From NCBI GenBank assembly GCA_964496425.1, contig CAZBZO010000002.1, positions 66,450 through 130,449 on the forward strand: 64,000 nucleotides of DNA. The letters run 5' to 3'. The translations under genes were made by a program, and so were the position numbers. The notes below the pieces were generated by a model. The model was not told the DNA's origin and did not search any database. It worked only from the letters and a program-made list of their open reading frames with translations. The stretch comes from an uncultured Candidatus Saccharibacteria bacterium. Lineage in GTDB: Bacteria > Patescibacteriota > Minisyncoccia > Phycocordibacterales > UBA9973. Below are positions 3,860-34,415 of this stretch, piece after piece. Numbering within the stretch: the first letter of the stretch is position 1; each line of letters starts with the position of its first letter.

Positions 3860-4609
3860 ATGGATACTATACAAATTATTATTCTCGCGGCTGGACAAGG
3901 GAAACGCATGCAAACCGAAGTGCCGAAAGCCCTTGTGCCATTTCATGGCATGCCGATGATTGACTACGTGCTGCGCGCAGTAAGAGAAAGCGGTCTATCT
4001 CGGAAGCCAATCGTTGTTGTTGGGTATAAAAAAGAAGAAGTGGTCAAGCATGTTGCCGGGCAAGGAATTTGTGTGGATCAAAAAGAAATACTTGGTACTG
4101 GGCATGCTGTGCTTGCTACGGAAAATGATATACCCCAAGACGTGAGTGATATTGTTGTTCTCTACGCTGATGCACCTTCAGTGACTGGCGCCATGGTTGC
4201 CAACCTTGTGGCAACGCACACAGCTGAAAATAAAAATCTTACGATGGCCACAGTAGTTGTGCCTCATTTTGAAGGCTGGTACGAAGTTTTTTATGCGCCC
4301 TTTAGTCGTGTTGTGCGTGATGAATTTGGGAAAATAGTAAAAAATGTAGAGTTTAAAGATGCAACCGAGGAGGAGAAAAAAATTCGTGAGCTCAATCCCT
4401 GCTACTTCTGCTTTAAGAAAGATTGGCTCTTTGAACACTTAAAACTTATTAAAAATGAAAATACACAAGGAGAGTATTATCTGACTGACCTCGTAAAATA
4501 CGCTGCCACAGAAGGCAGTATTGCCTCCGTGACAATTAGTCCAGAAGAGGCACTAGGGGTAAATAGTAAAGTAGAACTTGAACGTTTGGAAGCAATTGTA
4601 AAAAAGTAA
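3860..4609 (+). CDS. sugar-phosphate nucleotidyltransferase (GlmU N-terminal uridyltransferase-like domain only)
   Basis: N-terminal ILAAGQGKRM...PKALVP motif of NTP-transferase family. No left-handed beta-helix acetyltransferase part. Confidence 0.65.
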   Translation: MDTIQIIILAAGQGKRMQTEVPKALVPFHGMPMIDYVLRAVRESGLSRKPIVVVGYKKEEVVKHVAGQGICVDQKEILGTGHAVLATENDIPQDVSDIVVLYADAPSVTGAMVANLVATHTAENKNLTMATVVVPHFEGWYEVFYAPFSRVVRDEFGKIVKNVEFKDATEEEKKIRELNPCYFCFKKDWLFEHLKLIKNENTQGEYYLTDLVKYAATEGSIASVTISPEEALGVNSKVELERLEAIVKK

Positions 4610-8896: not shown

Positions 8897-10822
8897 TCAA
8901 AAAAGATCTTCGGGGTTAATTTCAACGGCATAATTTTGCCCAGCAGTCTCGATCGCCGAAAGAAGTTTTGGGTCACGTTCTCCTTTGTGGCGAAGCCCGG
9001 GTGTCGACCAACGGCTTCCATGCACTCGTACAAGCGCATGGAAGCCAACGGCGCGTCCCTTCCGCGCACGTCCTTCAATGATACTTATTTTTTCGCCTTC
9101 AAAAATTTGCATAAGGCGATTTTTTTCTAGATTTTGCGCTGAGGGTTTTCCGCGGAAAGAGAGCTTAATAAGAACGACAAATGGGGGATAGCGTAACCGT
9201 TCTCGAAGCGTTAGTTCTTCTTGATACCATTGCCGTAGATTGCCACTGTTTTTTACGTATAAAATAGGATCATTCGGATTGCGTGTTTGAATAAAAATTC
9301 TCCGTTCTGTGATCGATCGGAGCATGACGAGGAGCTCTAAAATTCGCTCATTGATCCGGTAGCTTGCGATATTAAAAAGGGAATCAAATGATATTACTGC
9401 AGTTGTATCAACACTTTGATTAAGGTAAAAAAGGGCCATTTCAGTGCCAAGGAGTATGCCTCCTTCTGCGCGCTCAAATTGTTTCATAACCTTTTGCGCG
9501 GCGCTTGCGGTACGTACCACTTCGCGATCAATGCGAAAAATTGGGATATGCGGGAAATCTTTTTTTAGTTCATTAAAAACATATTCAATACCTATGCCAA
9601 GCGGTACAAGATTCCAGCTCTGGCACACGGTACATGTACGCGTCGCGTCGAAGTCATGTTGGCAACGGTTACAGGTGTAGATACGTACTCCACTTCGCTC
9701 GTAAAGCACCAGAGGAGTTTGGCACGTTGGGCATGTCACAAGCGTACCGCAGTCGCGGCAGATGGTGGACGTGGCCAATCCCGTACGGAGTGTGAAAAGA
9801 AATATCTTCTTTTTCGACTCATGAGCTTCTTCGATCGCTTCTCGTACTTGGGGTGTAATACTGGAAAACTTTTTTTTAGCAACTGGTGCATTTTGGCTTG
9901 GGTCGATAATAATTTCTTCGGTTGTATGGGACATCCGAAAGACAGGCGCACTTACTTCGCCGATTTCCCTTGAATCAAACTTATACATTGTTTCAGCTCG
10001 TAATAATGTGTCAGCAATAATAAATCTCAGTTTCTGCTCGTGGGCAAAAATTTCAGCAAATATTCGGAAGTCGATAGTGCTTCCGTGCATACTTCTATAT
10101 GCACCCGAACTTTCATGTTCTACGACAATGGTACCGAGATCGAAGCGGGGTATGGAAAGATAGGGTACCGTAGCGATAATAAGGACTGGATGTGTTTCAG
10201 CTGTCGTGCGATTGTATGCTTCGAGTAACTCTTTTTTTGTCCGTTCGCTATGAAAAACGAAAGTATATTGTTCAATGCCGCGACCGAGACTCTCGCTAAA
10301 TGTTTTAATATCAGCGACGGTCGGCAAACAAATAAATACTGATTGTTTGCGTGCAAAGGCTTCTCGTATAAACGTCCGGTAATAAGACAAACGATCATCA
10401 AGCGGTGCCTGAAATATAAGTTTCTCTTGTACCGTGTCTCGAGTTTCTAAAGGTTTCTCAATTTGAGTTGCGACAATCAGCTTTTCATACTGTTCCAAGA
10501 AAAGTGTTGGAATGAGTTCACCAAAGACGGCGCTCGGTGCTCCTAAAAAATAGGAGCACGTTTCTTCGCAGGCTTTAAAAAAACTTTCAGGGAAGTGCGC
10601 CATTCCTTTCACTGAAGTAATTTTTCGAAGATTGAACGCCGAATTTTTAATCGTCGCTTTGGCCGCGCGTACTTCGTGGGTGCCAATAACGAGTGCGTGA
10701 TGAATTTTTTTCCGCACAGGTACGGTTACAATCATACCGGGCACTATGTCCTTTGCCGAAAAATATGAAAGTTCCTCAGTTCGGATTTTAGTGGAAAGTG
10801 GCAAAACGGTGACTTCCTTCAT
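8897..10822 (-). CDS. priA: primosomal protein N' (PriA)-like, Walker A absent and DExH box degenerate
   Basis: Classic PriA Cys4-Cys4 zinc-binding region CRDCGT..CPTCQ..CNRCQ..CTVCQ. No GxGKT found. VVEHESS replaces DEEH. Confidence 0.75.
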   Translation of the reverse strand: MKEVTVLPLSTKIRTEELSYFSAKDIVPGMIVTVPVRKKIHHALVIGTHEVRAAKATIKNSAFNLRKITSVKGMAHFPESFFKACEETCSYFLGAPSAVFGELIPTLFLEQYEKLIVATQIEKPLETRDTVQEKLIFQAPLDDRLSYYRTFIREAFARKQSVFICLPTVADIKTFSESLGRGIEQYTFVFHSERTKKELLEAYNRTTAETHPVLIIATVPYLSIPRFDLGTIVVEHESSGAYRSMHGSTIDFRIFAEIFAHEQKLRFIIADTLLRAETMYKFDSREIGEVSAPVFRMSHTTEEIIIDPSQNAPVAKKKFSSITPQVREAIEEAHESKKKIFLFTLRTGLATSTICRDCGTLVTCPTCQTPLVLYERSGVRIYTCNRCQHDFDATRTCTVCQSWNLVPLGIGIEYVFNELKKDFPHIPIFRIDREVVRTASAAQKVMKQFERAEGGILLGTEMALFYLNQSVDTTAVISFDSLFNIASYRINERILELLVMLRSITERRIFIQTRNPNDPILYVKNSGNLRQWYQEELTLRERLRYPPFVVLIKLSFRGKPSAQNLEKNRLMQIFEGEKISIIEGRARKGRAVGFHALVRVHGSRWSTPGLRHKGERDPKLLSAIETAGQNYAVEINPEDLF

Positions 10823-14826: not shown

Positions 14827-16578
14827 ATGGAAATTCGAAACATCGCAATTATCGCCCACGTTGACCACGGCAAAACAACCCTCACTGACATGCTCATGAA
14901 GCAATGTAACATGGTAGAAGAGGGCGTCACCATGGATTCAAACACGCTCGAGCAGGAGCGCGGCATTACCATATACGCCAAAAATACTTCGGTCATGTAT
15001 AAGGGCACAAAAATTAACATTGTTGATACGCCTGGACACGCTGACTTCGGATCTGAAGTGGAGCGCGTGCTCCGTGCTATCGACTCCGTACTCCTTTTGG
15101 TGGACGCGCAAGAAGGACCGATGCCGCAAACTCGTTTCGTACTTAAAAAATCTCTCGAGCTTGGCCTCCAGCCTATTTTGGTCATCAATAAAATTGACAA
15201 GCCAGCTGCCAATCCTGATCGCACACACGAAGAAGTGCTTGAGCTTTTCCTTGAGCTTGGTGCAACCGATAAGCAAATTGATTTCACGACCGTGTACGCG
15301 ATTGGGCGCGCGGGTATTGCGAAACGAAAACTTACAGATGAATCTACTGATCTCATGCCGCTTCTCGACGTCGTGCTCGAAGAAGTGCCAGCTGCATCCG
15401 GAAAAGAAGCGGAACCATTTCAAGCCCAAGTTTTCAATCTTGCGTATGACAACTTTCTTGGCCGCTTAGCGATTGTTCGGATCTATCAAGGCACGGTTAC
15501 TGATGGTAGTACTATTATCGTGAAAAAAGCCGACGGAGAAAGTCGTACAGCTCGCATTACTAAGATATATACTTTTTTGGGATTAACACGTAAGGAAGTC
15601 AAAGAAGCAACTGCTGGAGATATTGTTATTATTGCAGGTATTCCTGATGTGTATATCGGTGAGACTCTCTGTATGGATTCATCAGTTCTGCCCCTTTCTG
15701 CCATCGGTATTGATGAACCGACAATCTCCCTTAACTTCATGGTAAACGACTCACCGTTTGCCGGCCGCGAAGGAAAGTTTGTCACTTCACGCCAGATCCG
15801 GGATCGCTTGGTGCGAGAGCTTGAAGTGAATGTGGGGCTTAAGGTTGATTTCAATAACAACGACTATTTTACTGTGTATGGTCGCGGCGAACTCCATATT
15901 GCTGTGCTTTTGGAAAATATGCGCCGTGAAGGATATGAAGTACAAGTGTCTCAACCACAAGTAATCGTTAAAGAAGAAAATGGCGAGAAAGTTGAGCCGT
16001 ACGAAGAAGTAATTGTCGATGTGCCAACTGCCGCGAGCGGAACTGTGATTGAAAAACTCACGAAGCGCCGAGGATTACTCCAACATATGCAGGAGAAAGA
16101 GGGAATTACTCGCGTAATATTTGAAATGCCGACACGCGGGCTTTTGGGATATCGCGGACAATTTATCATCGACACGAAAGGCGAAGGTATTTTATCGTCT
16201 CGCTTTATTGGATTTAAGTCATATGTGGGAGAAATTAAAAAGCGAGAAGTTGGATCTATGACTTCCATGATGGCCGGCAAAGCAGTAGCATTTGCGCTTT
16301 GGAATCTTCAAGAGCGCGGACTTTTGTATGTTGAGCCAGGCAATGAAGTCTATGAAGGCATGGTTATCGGCAATGTCACGAAGGGCGATGATCTTGCGGT
16401 CAATCCGATCAAAGGAAAACAGCTTACCAACATGCGCGCTTCAGGATCAGATGAATCTATTTATCTCAAACCGGCCTACGTCTTATCGATTGAGCGGGGA
16501 CTTGAAGTTATGTCCGGGGATGAATTTTTGGAGATAACTCCTGCGTCTGTCCGGCTACGTAAAAACCTCAAAAAATAG
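14827..16578 (+). CDS. typA: translational GTPase TypA/BipA
   Basis: AIIAHVDHGKTTL G1 motif, DTPGHADF G3 motif, 583 aa with BipA-type C-terminal domain. Confidence 0.95.
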   Translation: MEIRNIAIIAHVDHGKTTLTDMLMKQCNMVEEGVTMDSNTLEQERGITIYAKNTSVMYKGTKINIVDTPGHADFGSEVERVLRAIDSVLLLVDAQEGPMPQTRFVLKKSLELGLQPILVINKIDKPAANPDRTHEEVLELFLELGATDKQIDFTTVYAIGRAGIAKRKLTDESTDLMPLLDVVLEEVPAASGKEAEPFQAQVFNLAYDNFLGRLAIVRIYQGTVTDGSTIIVKKADGESRTARITKIYTFLGLTRKEVKEATAGDIVIIAGIPDVYIGETLCMDSSVLPLSAIGIDEPTISLNFMVNDSPFAGREGKFVTSRQIRDRLVRELEVNVGLKVDFNNNDYFTVYGRGELHIAVLLENMRREGYEVQVSQPQVIVKEENGEKVEPYEEVIVDVPTAASGTVIEKLTKRRGLLQHMQEKEGITRVIFEMPTRGLLGYRGQFIIDTKGEGILSSRFIGFKSYVGEIKKREVGSMTSMMAGKAVAFALWNLQERGLLYVEPGNEVYEGMVIGNVTKGDDLAVNPIKGKQLTNMRASGSDESIYLKPAYVLSIERGLEVMSGDEFLEITPASVRLRKNLKK

Positions 16579-16594: not shown

Positions 16595-16623
16595 TTGACT
16601 ATATTTTTATATTGTGTTATGAT
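16595..16623 (+). promoter_or_regulatory. sigma70-like promoter TTGACT-17-TATGAT
   Basis: Consensus-like hexamers with 17-nt spacer in an AT-rich intergenic region. Confidence 0.45.
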
Positions 16624-16697
16624 GCATCTGCAATAGAAAGCAAAAAATACTTGATTTTTAAGGCTTAAAACCATTTAAAAAATTCAAACGTTATTTA

Positions 16698-16726
16698 TTG
16701 ACTGTTGTAAACAATAATGATACTAT
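16698..16726 (+). promoter_or_regulatory. sigma70-like promoter TTGACT-17-TACTAT
   Basis: Second tandem promoter about 40 nt upstream of the 16766 start. Confidence 0.45.
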
Positions 16727-16765
16727 AGAAGTTCAGCTTTAAAAATCTAAAGAATTTTTTAAAAA

Positions 16766-17794
16766 ATGCCTACAATAAATTTTAAACCCAAACAAGTTAC
16801 CAAAAGAATCCTATCTCCACTCCAGGATCGAGCCTATGATGTCGTTGAAAACCGTTTTGGTTTGGCCAATGACGCGGAGCGTAAGACACTCGAAGCGATC
16901 GGAAAAAAATATGGAATTACTCGTGAACGCGTGCGACAGATTGAGCACGCAGCTCTTGCGCTTATTCGAAAATCAAATGAATACAAACAAGAAAATGAAG
17001 TATTCGGTGAAATAAAAAAACTCATTCACGAGCTTGGCGGCATTGTTCCAGAGGAAAATTTTCTTGCCTCACTTTCTAAAGATCCGATGGTACAAAATCA
17101 TGTGCATTTTTATTTGGTGCTCGGTGATGATTTCACAAAACATAAAGAGGATGACCATTTTGAATCTCGCTGGAGTGTGAATGATGAAATCGCGCAAGAT
17201 GTTCATGAATCCTTGCAGCGCTTGTATGCCAGTCTGTCTGATGACGAACTCATTTCAGAATCTGAAATCATCGGCCGTTTTCTTACGCACTTGAAGGATT
17301 CGTCTGATAAATATCGCGATGAAGAAATAGCCCGTCGCTGGCTCGGTCTTTCTAAAAAAATCGCCAAAAATCCACTCGGCGAATGGGGGAAAGCTGATTC
17401 TTCAAATGTCAAAACTCGCGGCGTTCGTGACTATGCGTTTCTCGTGATGCGAAAGCACGGTTCACCAATGCATTTCCATGAAGTAGCTAAAGCGATTTCT
17501 GATACATTTGGCAAAAAGACTCACGTTGCCACATGTCACAATGAGCTTATTAAGGATCCACGTTTTGTGCTCGTCGGCCGCGGTATGTATGCCTTGTCTG
17601 AATGGGGATACAAAACAGGTATTGTTCGGGACGTCATCAAAGAGATCCTTAAAAAGGAAGGTCCAATGCGAAAGGAGGACATCGTGGAGCGTGTCATGAA
17701 AGAGCGCTACCTCAAACGAAACACAATTTTGGTGAATCTTCAAAATCCAAAATATTTCAAAAAAACAAAAGACAAACTCTATACTGTTGCCTAA
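16766..17794 (+). CDS. DNA-binding protein with N-terminal sigma-70 region-4-like HTH and C-terminal HARE-HTH (RpoE-delta-like) winged helix
   Basis: LEAIGKKYGITRERVRQIEHAALALIRK matches the sigma70 r4.2 pattern. The C-terminal segment HFHEVAKAI...DPRFVLVGRGMYALSEWGY resembles the HARE-HTH of RNAP delta. Confidence 0.55.
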   Translation: MPTINFKPKQVTKRILSPLQDRAYDVVENRFGLANDAERKTLEAIGKKYGITRERVRQIEHAALALIRKSNEYKQENEVFGEIKKLIHELGGIVPEENFLASLSKDPMVQNHVHFYLVLGDDFTKHKEDDHFESRWSVNDEIAQDVHESLQRLYASLSDDELISESEIIGRFLTHLKDSSDKYRDEEIARRWLGLSKKIAKNPLGEWGKADSSNVKTRGVRDYAFLVMRKHGSPMHFHEVAKAISDTFGKKTHVATCHNELIKDPRFVLVGRGMYALSEWGYKTGIVRDVIKEILKKEGPMRKEDIVERVMKERYLKRNTILVNLQNPKYFKKTKDKLYTVA

Positions 17795-17800
17795 GAGCAG

Positions 17801-17836
17801 CCAAAACAAAAGCCCCGATCGGGGCTTTTGTTTTGG
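17801..17836 (+). terminator. intrinsic terminator
   Basis: caaaacaaaagccccgatcggggcttttgttttg perfect hairpin with T run. Confidence 0.6.
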
Positions 17837-17874
17837 CTATTAACGATTTTTCGAATTCACAGTATACTGAGACT

Positions 17875-18345
17875 ATGCGGACGTACAATAGAGGAATCAT
17901 TCTCACTTTGATACTCATTGTGATTGGGTTTGTTTTGGTGCTCACACTCATCGGGTTTTTTCGTACCGGCACGCTTGATAGCAAACTCAATTTCACCGTT
18001 AAATCGATCCTTAAGGAGCCCTGCGGTTTAAGTATCAAAACTCCGCATCTTCATGAAAGCGTAACATTTCCGCTTGAAATCACGGGTTATATAAATGGCT
18101 GTGGCTGGGAACCCCGGGACGACCGTGCCGGCACTGTAGTACTTTATTCTGATCACGGTATGCCACTCACGCCTCCAGTCACGCTTCTTATGCCGCCACA
18201 GGCAGAGCGTGAACCGTACTACTTTGAATCAATCATAAACATTGTGCCTCCGAGTGGTACAAAAGAGGGAATACTTATTTTTGAAAACAATCGCGGTAAC
18301 GGTCTTTCTCCTGAATTTGAGGAATATGAAATATCATTTAAATAA
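17875..18345 (+). CDS. hypothetical membrane-anchored protein with Ig-like (Gmad2-like) ectodomain
   Basis: N-terminal TM, then a beta-rich domain. Start set at the ATG (MRTYN), because the track start is non-ATG. Confidence 0.45.
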   Translation: MRTYNRGIILTLILIVIGFVLVLTLIGFFRTGTLDSKLNFTVKSILKEPCGLSIKTPHLHESVTFPLEITGYINGCGWEPRDDRAGTVVLYSDHGMPLTPPVTLLMPPQAEREPYYFESIINIVPPSGTKEGILIFENNRGNGLSPEFEEYEISFK

Positions 18346-18430: not shown

Positions 18431-19717
18431 ATGGATATAGTATTTGCTATTATTTCTTGGATATTTTTTATTATTGGCAAGCTCGCTATTGTGTGGGGGC
18501 CGATTTTGGCGCTCTACATTGCCTTTGAGTTTTGGCACCATTTTGTGGTGGACCGGTTTATTTCTGGCATCACCTGGAGTTTGCTTGAAGTGGAAGTGCC
18601 ACGCGATATTTTAAAGTCTCCACTTGCCATGGAACTTATTTTCTCCAACGCTATGTACCAGATGAGTAACAAAGGACTCTGGGAGGTGTGGATACAAGGT
18701 GCGGTCCATCTCTGGTTCTCTTTGGAAATCGTTTCGACCGAAGGTCGAGTGCATTTTTATATTCGCACAGCAGATCGTATCAAGCCGCTTTTGGAAGCAC
18801 AGATTTATGGTCAGTATCCGCAAGCCAAAATTGTTGAAGTAGAAGATTATACGTTGAGAGTGCCGTACGATGTTCCGAATGATGATTGGTACATGTGGGG
18901 GTGCGAATTTAAACTTGCCGACGGAGATTTTTATCCGATCAAAACCTATGTCAACTTCGGCCTTGATGAAAATCCAAAAGAAGAAGAAAAAATCGATCCA
19001 CTCACGCCGACTGTAGAATTCCTCGGTTCGCTCACGAAAGGGCAACATATTTGGACGCAGATTATCGTGCGGGCAACAGAAAAACACTATCATCAGCACG
19101 GCACGCTCTTTAAACACCATGGCTGGGTAGAGGAAGGCAATCATTTTCTTAAAGAAATTATGATCCCGTATACCAAAAAGGGTATCAACTACGACGGGAG
19201 TACATCAACCGAAATCCGTATGCCAAAAATTGTGGAAGATAAAGTTAAAGCAATCAAAGAAAAACTTGAGAAAATCGGTTTTGACTGTGGTATTCGAGTG
19301 ATCGTCCTATCAGAAAAAAAATATGTTACACAGGACGCTTTCAACAATCTTCGCCGCGCTTCGCGTCTTATGTATCGTCAATACACAGATCCAGATACAA
19401 ATCGCTTAGAGAGAGTAAAACCAACACAATTTGATTCGCCATTCGCTGATCCAACAGGGAAAAGTTTAAAATTTATAAAACACCGCATGCTGTTTTGGTA
19501 TCGTACTCGTACTTTTTTCCATCCAGCATTTTGGTATGCAGTAAAGTATCCAGCGTTTGTTAGTGCGTTTTTTCCTTCCCATCGGCCTGAACCATTTGTC
19601 CTCAATTCAGAGGAGCTTGCAACACTCTTTCATTTCCCTGGCCAAGTATCGCAAACACCCACATTTAAACGTTTGGAGTCTCGCACTGCAAAACCTCCGA
19701 CCAATCTTCCTATTTAG
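18431..19717 (+). CDS. hypothetical large membrane-anchored protein
   Basis: 428-aa ATG ORF with N-terminal TM hairpin. Typical GC content. Aromatic-rich C-terminus. No recognised motif. Confidence 0.55.
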   Translation: MDIVFAIISWIFFIIGKLAIVWGPILALYIAFEFWHHFVVDRFISGITWSLLEVEVPRDILKSPLAMELIFSNAMYQMSNKGLWEVWIQGAVHLWFSLEIVSTEGRVHFYIRTADRIKPLLEAQIYGQYPQAKIVEVEDYTLRVPYDVPNDDWYMWGCEFKLADGDFYPIKTYVNFGLDENPKEEEKIDPLTPTVEFLGSLTKGQHIWTQIIVRATEKHYHQHGTLFKHHGWVEEGNHFLKEIMIPYTKKGINYDGSTSTEIRMPKIVEDKVKAIKEKLEKIGFDCGIRVIVLSEKKYVTQDAFNNLRRASRLMYRQYTDPDTNRLERVKPTQFDSPFADPTGKSLKFIKHRMLFWYRTRTFFHPAFWYAVKYPAFVSAFFPSHRPEPFVLNSEELATLFHFPGQVSQTPTFKRLESRTAKPPTNLPI

Positions 19718-30255: not shown

Positions 30256-30284
30256 TTGACTAAAAAGATAAAATAGTGTACAAT
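30256..30284 (+). promoter_or_regulatory. sigma70-like promoter TTGACT-17-TACAAT
   Basis: Near-consensus hexamers about 55 nt upstream of the 30341 ATG, in a divergent intergenic region. Confidence 0.5.
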
Positions 30285-30340: not shown

Positions 30341-31510
30341 ATGATACAGAAAATCTTTTTACTTGCTCTTTTGGCACAAATGCTGTCAGGAGTGCTTGCC
30401 GCACAGGAAAATGAATACCAGATAATTGATTCTATGCCGAGCATTGCAGGACGTGGCGTAGTAGACATGAAAAGCTTTAGTTATGCTGCTACGGTGGTTA
30501 ATGGTGAGAAGCTTGACGAGGTTTCTATTGGAGAGCTTAAAAATAAGCAGGACTCAATAATTACTGTAAACTCAAAACTTGTGTTTATTTTGCCAAGCCA
30601 TACTGCGAATTACAAAAAACACAGCAGGCCAATGTTTGCTGATTATGCTTTAGTAAAAAATATAAATGGACATTTTATTCTATGGCGTGACGCAAAGGAT
30701 AAAACCGCTGTACCAAGAATATTCAAATATGGAAACCAAGTACCACTACAGGGAAAAAGTATTTCGCTTGAAGATTTTTTAAAGGTAGATAGCGTAGATG
30801 ACAAGCGAATACTCGGAGCTCTGGACTTAGAGAAAGTTATTTTTTATGAAATGATTTTCAAAAAGCCAGGACCCGATCTTGCTATTTGGCAGACTGCTAT
30901 GACGCAATACGATACTGTAGGAGATAAGGTGTACCGAACAATGCGACTAATAAACTTTATTAATGCATCCGATACCGTTGGACTCACTAGTAGAAGTACG
31001 GCAGCATTGATTGAATTGGTACCATCAGTTTGGAGTAATCAGTTGAACAAATTCGTTGCTCTTTCTGAAACTCCATGGAGGAGTAAAGCTAAAACAAAAA
31101 GACTTGCTTTAGACATTGCCTTCAATGCTGATTCAGAAAATCCTCCAAAGAGTAAAGGTAGGGATAAATCTTCTGATAAATCACAAGGTGGTGAAAAAGA
31201 TAAAGATGAAACAATAGTCCCAATCCAACTGATTGAAGCAAAAAGTAATTCTTTTATCGTTAAGATTGATCCTGTACAGAAGGCCAAAAGTTATATAGTC
31301 ACCATAGCCACTGACGAAGATATGAAAAATAAAGTGTCAGATCAAAAAGCACAAGGAATGTTGAATAGAGTATCTCTTAATGAGGAAAATGGTAAAAAAA
31401 TAATAGCGAACACTACTTACTATATTCAATACAAAGGATACTCAGGAGATGAAGGATCGGGAGATCTTGTTTTTACAAGTGATGTCTATACCATCAAAAG
31501 TGGAAAATAA
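30341..31510 (+). CDS. hypothetical secreted protein
   Basis: Cleavable-looking signal peptide (LLALLAQMLSGVLAAQ), 389 aa, lysine-rich low-complexity middle region. Confidence 0.5.
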   Translation: MIQKIFLLALLAQMLSGVLAAQENEYQIIDSMPSIAGRGVVDMKSFSYAATVVNGEKLDEVSIGELKNKQDSIITVNSKLVFILPSHTANYKKHSRPMFADYALVKNINGHFILWRDAKDKTAVPRIFKYGNQVPLQGKSISLEDFLKVDSVDDKRILGALDLEKVIFYEMIFKKPGPDLAIWQTAMTQYDTVGDKVYRTMRLINFINASDTVGLTSRSTAALIELVPSVWSNQLNKFVALSETPWRSKAKTKRLALDIAFNADSENPPKSKGRDKSSDKSQGGEKDKDETIVPIQLIEAKSNSFIVKIDPVQKAKSYIVTIATDEDMKNKVSDQKAQGMLNRVSLNEENGKKIIANTTYYIQYKGYSGDEGSGDLVFTSDVYTIKSGK

Positions 31511-34303: not shown

Positions 34304-34415
34304 GTAAGTATTTTCGTACCAAAAGAGTATATCATATCATCTAAAAATCAATGCCCATTTCGGGTAGATATCCGTTGACTCAAAGGTTCTTCTTTGATAT
34401 ACTCCCAAAACCAAT

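Follow-up and report, generated by a model that had tools for sequence, protein, structure and literature searches.

The protein considered here is encoded on the forward strand at positions 16766..17794 of a 64,000-nucleotide stretch of contig CAZBZO010000002.1 (assembly GCA_964496425.1, an uncultured Candidatus Saccharibacteria bacterium), hereafter called the window. The open reading frame (ORF) codes for 342 amino acids and is separated by a 187-bp spacer from the preceding gene, typA/bipA (14827-16578). Our results place the protein, as an ordinary member, in a very large Patescibacteria family that already carries an annotation, and the ORF, Pfam matches, and AlphaFold2 model together point to a five-domain architecture, in which a sigma region 4 domain (sigma-4) is followed by four tandem winged helices. 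Judged from its sequence, the protein is not a sigma factor. We give about an even chance to the reading that it is a stand-alone, two-ended DNA binder at promoters bearing a -35 element, which modulates region 4 of the housekeeping sigma factor and regulates itself. According to this reading, the free sigma-4 would bind duplex TTGAC(A/T)-type sites without RNA polymerase, while the basic pair of HARE-HTH and winged helix 4 would grip the adjacent DNA. The protein would thereby occupy the smaller number of promoters equipped with a -35 box, its own included, where it would rival region 4 of the housekeeping sigma or modulate its action. Isolated sigma-4 is able to bind DNA in the absence of RNA polymerase.

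Both named domains were recognized by profile searches. Sigma70_r4 (PF04545) matched residues 16-69 with 43.2 bits (cut-off 24.1, E 2.7e-11), and HARE-HTH (PF05066) matched residues 222-280 with 41.5 bits (cut-off 25.9, E 1.8e-10). The curated thresholds of both models were also passed in 44 of the 44 diverse family members (34-56% identity) that made up our conservation alignment. The initial annotation had read a sigma70 region 4.2 at residues of about 35-70, quoting the motif GITRERVRQIEHAAL, which corresponds to residues 50-64, and had suggested searches with these two models; both domains were borne out. The N-terminus fits the family consensus MxxIxFKPKQVTK, and a database protein (P0001) is 100% identical to the window protein.

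The sigma-4 domain (residues 8-72, 16787..16981, forward strand) is a group-1-type region 4, comprising region 4.1 and the helix-turn-helix of region 4.2 according to Pfam and Foldseek, with a family mean charge of +4.7. It shares 48% identity over 60 residues with region 4 of a Patescibacteria RpoD and 44-48% identity over about 60 residues with domain 4 of SigA/RpoD, and Foldseek placed it on the structures 3n97, 7kug, and 1ku3 with a root-mean-square deviation (rmsd) of 1.0-1.3 Å at about 40% identity. Compared with region 4 of the group-1 sigma-70 factors (RpoD/SigA), the fold and sequence family are the same, the recognition helix TRER(V/I)RQIE is identical (TRERVRQIE in the window protein), and the rmsd is about 1 Å. 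However, the window protein lacks regions 1.2, 2, and 3 and carries four winged helices after sigma-4. The NCBIfam models for RpoD, RpoS, SigA, and RpoH aligned through their last 55-65 positions only and scored well under their full-length cut-offs (18-52 bits against cut-offs of 43-800), and a search of PDB sequences returned sigma domain 4 chains only, with domain 4 of S. aureus SigA at the top (E 8e-10). Because the NCBIfam alignments reach region 4 only and the PDB matches all belong to sigma domain 4, the absence of regions 2 and 3, for which the initial annotation had set the protein apart from standard sigma factors, is confirmed. In addition, Sigma70_r2 gave no Pfam match in the window protein at E values up to 1, and tblastn with region 2 of E. 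coli as query found nothing in the 64-kb window.

A bona fide region 4 without a region 2 would also be expected of one half of a two-subunit sigma factor, such as SigO-RsoA of B. subtilis, in which core binding and melting of the -10 element would fall to a separate region-2 protein. This explanation is highly improbable, since no region-2-like ORF was present in the window or within 6-10 kb of the family gene in 23 genomic loci of relatives (loci are designated L001 onwards), the conserved neighbour, a membrane protein, has an unrelated fold, and sigma factors contain nothing comparable to the four winged helices. Moreover, RpoD is encoded in full, including a region 4 of its own, in the Patescibacteria loci L043 and L018. 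The possibility that the protein is the split-off region 4 of a truncated RpoD was rejected for the same reason, and the complete RpoD in these two loci suggests that the family protein is an addition to the primary sigma factor, not a detached piece of it.

The conservation pattern within sigma-4 bears most directly on its function. Across the 44 members, R22, R30, G32, T41, L42, E43, I45, G46, T52, R53, E54, R55, R57, Q58, I59, and E60 were invariant or nearly so, and strict invariance was seen for T41, L42, G46, R53, E54, R55, R57, Q58, and I59. We take the first eight of these sixteen residues to be the equivalents of E. coli sigma-70 R554, R562, G564, T572, L573, E574, V576, and G577, and the last eight those of T583, R584, E585, R586, R588, Q589, I590, and E591. 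In sigma-70, these residues contact the -35 DNA or build the helix-turn-helix, as known from the structure of Taq sigma-4 with -35 DNA (1ku7) and from E. coli genetics. The equivalents of the activator-contact patch (K593, R596, K597) and of the group-1 RHPSRS tail were not conserved in the family. Since the DNA-contact residues are invariant while the activator patch and the tail are not, selection appears to have preserved the reading of DNA more clearly than the remaining surfaces of sigma-4. It is chiefly from this contrast that we infer direct DNA binding.

The same domain could instead act on RNA polymerase. In this alternative, the protein would be an accessory subunit whose sigma-4 docks on the beta-flap tip and either competes with the housekeeping sigma or replaces it once the sigma factor's own sigma-4 has let go, with HARE-HTH sitting on the polymerase as in the delta subunit. 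Across the lineage, its role would lie in tuning promoter selectivity or recycling. We regard this as the main rival, although a less likely one. The beta flap is the natural partner of sigma-4, the fold superposes on structures of sigma-4/flap-tip chimeras at 1.2-1.8 Å, and the family is wide among Patescibacteria lineages and apparently highly expressed. However, the C-terminal tail through which group-1 sigma-4 packs on the flap is unconserved, whereas the DNA-contact residues are invariant. In addition, rpoD, rpoB, and rpoC were linked to the family gene in none of the 23 loci. Co-occurrence with rpoD in relatives had been put forward as a check in the initial annotation; as a neighbour of the family gene, rpoD was found in 0 of 23 loci.

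The HARE-HTH domain allows a more direct comparison with the delta subunit (RpoE) of Firmicutes. Residues 222-284 aligned to positions 7-74 of the delta model TIGR04567 (E 2e-7), and annotations from the Joint Genome Institute (JGI) sometimes call family members "RNA polymerase delta subunit", both of which speak for an accessory subunit. On the other hand, the score of 31.1 bits lies below the cut-off of 42, and the HARE-HTH of the window protein is internal and basic, while that of delta is N-terminal and, in the B. subtilis sequence, acidic. The window protein also lacks the acidic disordered C-terminal half of delta and adds sigma-4 and three winged helices. Thus, membership fails both in the sigma-70 family, for want of region 2, and in the delta family, because the HARE-HTH domain is sub-threshold, internal, and basic and the acidic tail is missing.

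The structure prediction proposed in the initial annotation yielded a confident model. It was built by AlphaFold2 from 95 homologues, and its mean predicted local distance difference test score (pLDDT) was 90.1, with a predicted template modelling score (pTM) of 0.71 and no segment below a pLDDT of 50; its sigma-4 superposes on sigma region 4. The limits of the five domains, all on the forward strand, were drawn from the secondary structure of this model, from profile-profile comparison of sub-alignments (hhalign), and from charge analysis. Winged helix 1 (residues 75-139, 16988..17182) shows a helix-strand pattern of H-b-H-H-b-b at a pLDDT of >90. It has a family mean charge of -3.0 and a net charge of -7 in the window protein, is little conserved, and had no Pfam match. 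Winged helix 2 (residues 140-215, 17183..17410) is a repeat of it (hhalign probability 89%, E 2.3e-6, 60 columns) and is acidic to neutral, with a family mean of -0.5. HARE-HTH follows at residues 216-282 (17411..17611), where the model gives the pattern H-H-H-b-b at a pLDDT around 90; its charge is +5 in the window protein and +5.5 on average in the family, and its PxHF, HNEL, and GRGxY motifs are invariant. Winged helix 4 (residues 283-342, 17612..17791) has the same H-H-H-b-b pattern and is a diverged HARE-HTH-like repeat (hhalign against HARE-HTH: probability 74%, E 2.9e-5), with weak Pfam matches to HARE-HTH (E 0.012) and DUF3320 (E 0.0012). It is basic, at +9 in the window protein and +4.7 on average in the family. 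The middle region of the protein had no significant local Pfam match, and a profile of residues 75-342 gave no meaningful match among PDB sequences.

The fusion described in the initial annotation therefore holds for its two domains and not for the architecture, since four tandem winged helices follow sigma-4. Likewise, the HARE-HTH domain itself stands, but its placement in the C-terminal segment of about 90 residues does not, as it spans residues 216-282 and another winged helix (283-342) comes after it. A charge polarity runs through the whole family, in which sigma-4, HARE-HTH, and winged helix 4 are basic and the winged helices 1 and 2 between them are acidic or neutral. The latter two look like a rigid spacer between two basic ends.

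The recognition helices at the second basic end also contain invariant residues, namely H258, N259, E260, L261, and R272 in HARE-HTH and T320, N324, and L325 in winged helix 4. The invariance of polar residues at these positions would suit a reader of modified DNA, in which the HARE-HTH pair senses modified bases and sigma-4 directs the protein to promoters, so that methylation state is linked to transcription. Reading of modified DNA by HARE-HTH has been proposed for restriction-enzyme fusions (PMC10853773). That function is itself a prediction, and no methyltransferase, restriction, or defence gene was found linked to the family gene, whose context is one of housekeeping. Accordingly, we rate this explanation as very unlikely.

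Other proteins with consecutive winged helices, from eukaryotic machines, offer an analogy of architecture only. RPC62/C82 of RNA polymerase III, Dcc1, and UFL1-DDRGK1 likewise form rod-like scaffolds and appeared as weak Foldseek matches (E 6e-4 to 1e-2), but they have no sequence relationship to the window protein, with template modelling (TM) scores of 0.16-0.23 and an rmsd of >12 Å. In 2012, Aravind and Iyer (Cell Cycle 11:119) reportedly described, from computational work, HARE-HTH proteins that combine features of the RNA polymerase alpha subunit and of sigma factors, which would speak for the accessory-subunit alternative. Their class, a bacterial HARE-HTH fused to a sigma-type helix-turn-helix, is probably the same as the present family or a sister class. 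No region resembling the C-terminal domain of the alpha subunit was found in the window protein by Pfam at E values up to 1.

The promoter region of the gene provides further evidence for the reading as a DNA binder at -35-bearing promoters. The 187-bp spacer contains two promoter-like sites on the forward strand. The distal site P1 (16595..16623) has the sequence TTGACT-17-TATGAT with a TG extension, matches the consensus at 10 of 12 positions, and begins 17 nucleotides after the typA stop codon. The proximal promoter P2 (16698..16726) reads TTGACT-17-TACTAT, also with a TG extension, and lies about 40 nucleotides 5' of the ATG. A loose consensus promoter scan found 5 sites against 3.4 expected in shuffles, which is not above chance. 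With the strict pattern TTGACN-N16-18-TAnnnT, there were 6 sites in the 64-kb window, 2 of which fall inside this spacer. The two tandem promoters proposed in the initial annotation thus both exist as sites, although conservation extends only to the proximal one. P1 could not be found in L001, L002, and L081, relatives with 70% identity, and by comparison of these sequences it is lineage-specific while P2 is the promoter conserved in the family. The strict pattern occurred within 200 nucleotides upstream of the gene in 11 of 16 relatives, compared with a background of 0.015 per 200 nucleotides. When the -10 element was slightly relaxed, a TTGAC / TG / TAnnnT promoter was present in 17 of 19 loci, the sequences being anchored on TTGAC.

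Promoters of this kind appear to be uncommon in the genome. Among 43 extended -10 motifs (TGnTAnnnT) in the 7.6 kb of intergenic DNA in the window, 5 have a -35 element matching at 5/6 positions or more, and TTGACA is depleted about two-fold in the window (20 observed against 42.6 expected from a third-order Markov model). Taken together, these counts suggest that -35-box promoters are unusual here and that extended -10 promoters seem to predominate in this genome. Two further full -35/-10 promoters were located. One (34375-34403) precedes the gene for ribosomal protein L25 (34416-35069), and the other (30256-30284) precedes a 389-residue protein (30341-31510) that had no Pfam or NCBIfam match. 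The full promoter implies that the family gene is probably highly expressed, and a promoter of the same type at the L25 gene fits this view. Since the single -35-bearing promoter to be kept throughout the family is the gene's own, the protein probably regulates itself.

No extra operator motif was detected, as the promoter alignment of the relatives conserves the canonical elements only. Second -35-like hexamers stand beside the promoter in single loci, as an inverted TTGACAC-N5-GTGTCAA in L014 (~400-440), as TTGTCAA ... TTGACT in L013 (~160-190), and as TTGACA-N5-TTGACT in L002 (~4450-4475). These second TTGAC copies and inverted repeats are possible operators in single loci, but were rejected as a family operator because they are not systematic. 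Rfam recognized nothing in the upstream spacer and only three tRNAs in the window.

Downstream, the gene is closed by an intrinsic terminator on the forward strand (17799..17838), a perfect 18-bp stem with a 4-nucleotide loop (-32.2 kcal/mol, z = -7.8), and none of 200 shuffles folded as well. The hairpin lies just beyond position 17794, where the initial annotation had ended, and agrees with the strong terminator claimed there. Likewise, with its own promoter and terminator, the gene does form an independent transcription unit. The terminator looks bidirectional, since the A-tract and the U-tract sit inside the arms, and it was missed by the consensus terminator scan because the T-run is inside the stem. 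Comparable hairpins are found 3' of the gene in most relatives.

The combination of sigma-4 and HARE-HTH is not unique to the window and defines a very large annotated family. At least 8,000 clusters at 90% identity contain relatives of the window protein, all with PF04545 and PF05066. In a filter-free search of 1.84 billion representatives, clusters at 50% identity numbered about 1,150 at E values up to 1e-10, of which 589 reached 1e-30 or better. Almost all cluster representatives are 330-390 residues long and collinear. The full-length collinear relatives range from 100% to 34% identity, carry both domains, and give a family size of about 340-360 residues. Every full-length relative found among species-representative genomes belongs to the Patescibacteria, namely Paceibacterota, Kaiserbacteria, Parcubacteria, Falkowbacteria, and Peregrinibacteria. 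NCBI names the members "sigma factor-like helix-turn-helix DNA-binding protein", a generic label derived from the domains. This is the window protein's own family, which in metagenome-assembled genomes of Paceibacterota/Patescibacteria includes full-length relatives with 54-74% identity and the same two Pfam domains. Our literature search found neither experimental work nor a computational study devoted to the sigma-4/HARE-HTH family.

Several side observations concern the composition of this family. Several third-party assemblies labelled 'uncultured Candidatus Saccharibacteria' (L001, L003, L004, L006, L010, L011) have gene order and 50-70% identity in common with Paceibacteria loci. The label on them seems to mean Patescibacteria in general and is no proof of a saccharibacterial origin. 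Two apparent domain fusions were set aside as likely gene-call or assembly artefacts. One is P0180 (659 residues), in which SecF is joined to the sigma-4/HARE-HTH protein, most likely through a frameshift, gene-call error, or assembly error, and the other is P0130, which combines AAA_14 with a HARE-HTH half and looks chimeric. The family is essentially absent from viral contigs, where one partial match was found. The PADLOC model MzaA matched residues 13-70 only, at 28 bits, and no defence signature was found beyond sigma-4. A role as an anti-phage defence component such as MzaA, or an origin from phage, was rejected on the basis of this sigma-4-only match, the housekeeping neighbours, and the near-absence from viral contigs. 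All three also provide supporting context for the DNA-binder reading.

The genomic neighbourhood of the family gene changes with distance. The upstream genes mreB, holB-like, frr, rseP-like, and typA are conserved among close relatives only, and in distant lineages (L007, L009, L010) secF lies upstream instead. A conserved downstream neighbour, at 18431..19717 on the forward strand in the window, was recognized by synteny, modelling, and Foldseek. It codes for a 428-residue DUF8128 membrane protein. In 12 of 15 genome loci it immediately follows the family gene, even where the family protein has fallen to 32% identity, and the metagenome loci L081, L086, and L088 show the same arrangement. This pairing is the sole synteny that persists from 70% to 32% identity. 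The pair is absent in L014. The product of 18431-19717 had no significant local Pfam match, while PF26449 (DUF8128) is precomputed for its homologues. The N-terminus of this protein contains a transmembrane helix, and its C-terminus forms a disordered but conserved tail ending in ...KPPSNLP. By Foldseek, its model (pLDDT 86) is similar to the N-terminal part of TrwK/VirB4, a type IV secretion ATPase (7o42 and 8rtd, E ~1e-4, probability 1.0), and there is no ATPase domain. Of its ~2,000 homologues, the few that have source names belong to Patescibacteria/Paceibacteria, and our literature search found no paper on DUF8128/PF26449.

The gap between the two genes usually consists of a strong hairpin plus 44-400 bp. 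In the window it is 636 bp and includes an extra gene (17833-18345). The DUF8128 gene also has its own promoter of the extended -10 type without a -35 element. The linkage between the two genes is real, and their co-transcription is doubtful because the terminator, the gap, and the separate DUF8128 promoter intervene. The DUF8128 protein is a possible functional partner, and we put it forward as a candidate only.

The adjacency raises the alternative of a membrane-coupled regulator, which would either be held at the membrane by the DUF8128 protein and released by a signal, in the style of an anti-sigma factor, or deliver DNA to an assembly resembling the VirB4 N-terminal part. In favour of it are the unique persistence of the synteny, the transmembrane helix and VirB4/TrwK N-terminal-like fold of the neighbour, and its tail ...KPPSNLP, which resembles a docking motif. 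It is nevertheless decidedly unlikely, given the terminator, the gap of 44-636 bp (sometimes with a small gene in it), the separate promoter of the DUF8128 gene, the missing pair in L014, and the ~2,000 DUF8128 homologues against at least 8,000 for the family protein.

The extra gene between the two (17833-18345, forward strand) is a lineage-specific membrane-protein ORF. Its promoter-like site, TTAACG (17840)-17 nucleotides-TATACT (17863-17868), has a predicted start at ~17875. Since this start falls on the ATG of Met15, the real product may be a leaderless protein of 156 residues. The corresponding position in L001, L081, and L088 (4522-4977) is likewise taken by small transmembrane ORFs. 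Elsewhere in the window, a gene on the reverse strand (8897-10822) codes for a 641-residue protein that had only a weak match to a TFIIB-type zinc ribbon, and its counterpart in L081 had a weak match to the 3'-DNA-binding domain of PriA. By these sequence matches, the product is possibly a divergent PriA.

Returning to the reading of a DNA binder at -35-bearing promoters, several points weigh against it. Everything beyond the domain composition is inferred. The pattern of hydrophobic core residues L16, L19, V26, F31, and L33 is conserved, and binding to the beta-flap tip would need the same pattern. In RNA polymerase delta, the one well-studied bacterial HARE-HTH protein, the domain binds the polymerase and not DNA. 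The conserved TTGAC may merely reflect a strong promoter, because the alignment shows ordinary promoter elements and no extra operator. Finally, this model leaves the persistent adjacency of a membrane protein unexplained. Of the two possibilities named in the initial annotation, association with RNA polymerase and DNA binding, the evidence leans to the latter.

A bolder view, which we advance as speculation with some chance of being right, is that the family is an abundant, lineage-wide promoter reader. In that case, the -35-recognition module would have been split from RNA polymerase to serve as a global gate on the few -35-dependent promoters of these tiny genomes, binding either the duplex or the beta flap. 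The two spacer winged helices would hold the HARE-HTH pair at a sigma-like distance, and the DUF8128 membrane protein would possibly exert control. If true, this would be a mode of global transcription control without a characterized counterpart.

Three features are new as far as can be told, namely an architecture of four winged helices that shows a charge polarity, the conserved partnership with a DUF8128 protein that resembles the VirB4 N-terminal part, and the retention of a -35-bearing promoter by the gene in genomes with few promoters of this kind. What is offered here is a refined annotation of a known family and not the demonstration of a new mechanism. Patescibacteria, or the Candidate Phyla Radiation (CPR), account for much of bacterial diversity. 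Very few transcription factors can be recognized in them, and biochemical work on their transcription hardly exists. The family offers a handle on promoter control in these bacteria and could show a sigma domain working away from RNA polymerase, and its DNA-reading residues, own promoter, and membrane neighbour make the hypotheses easily testable.

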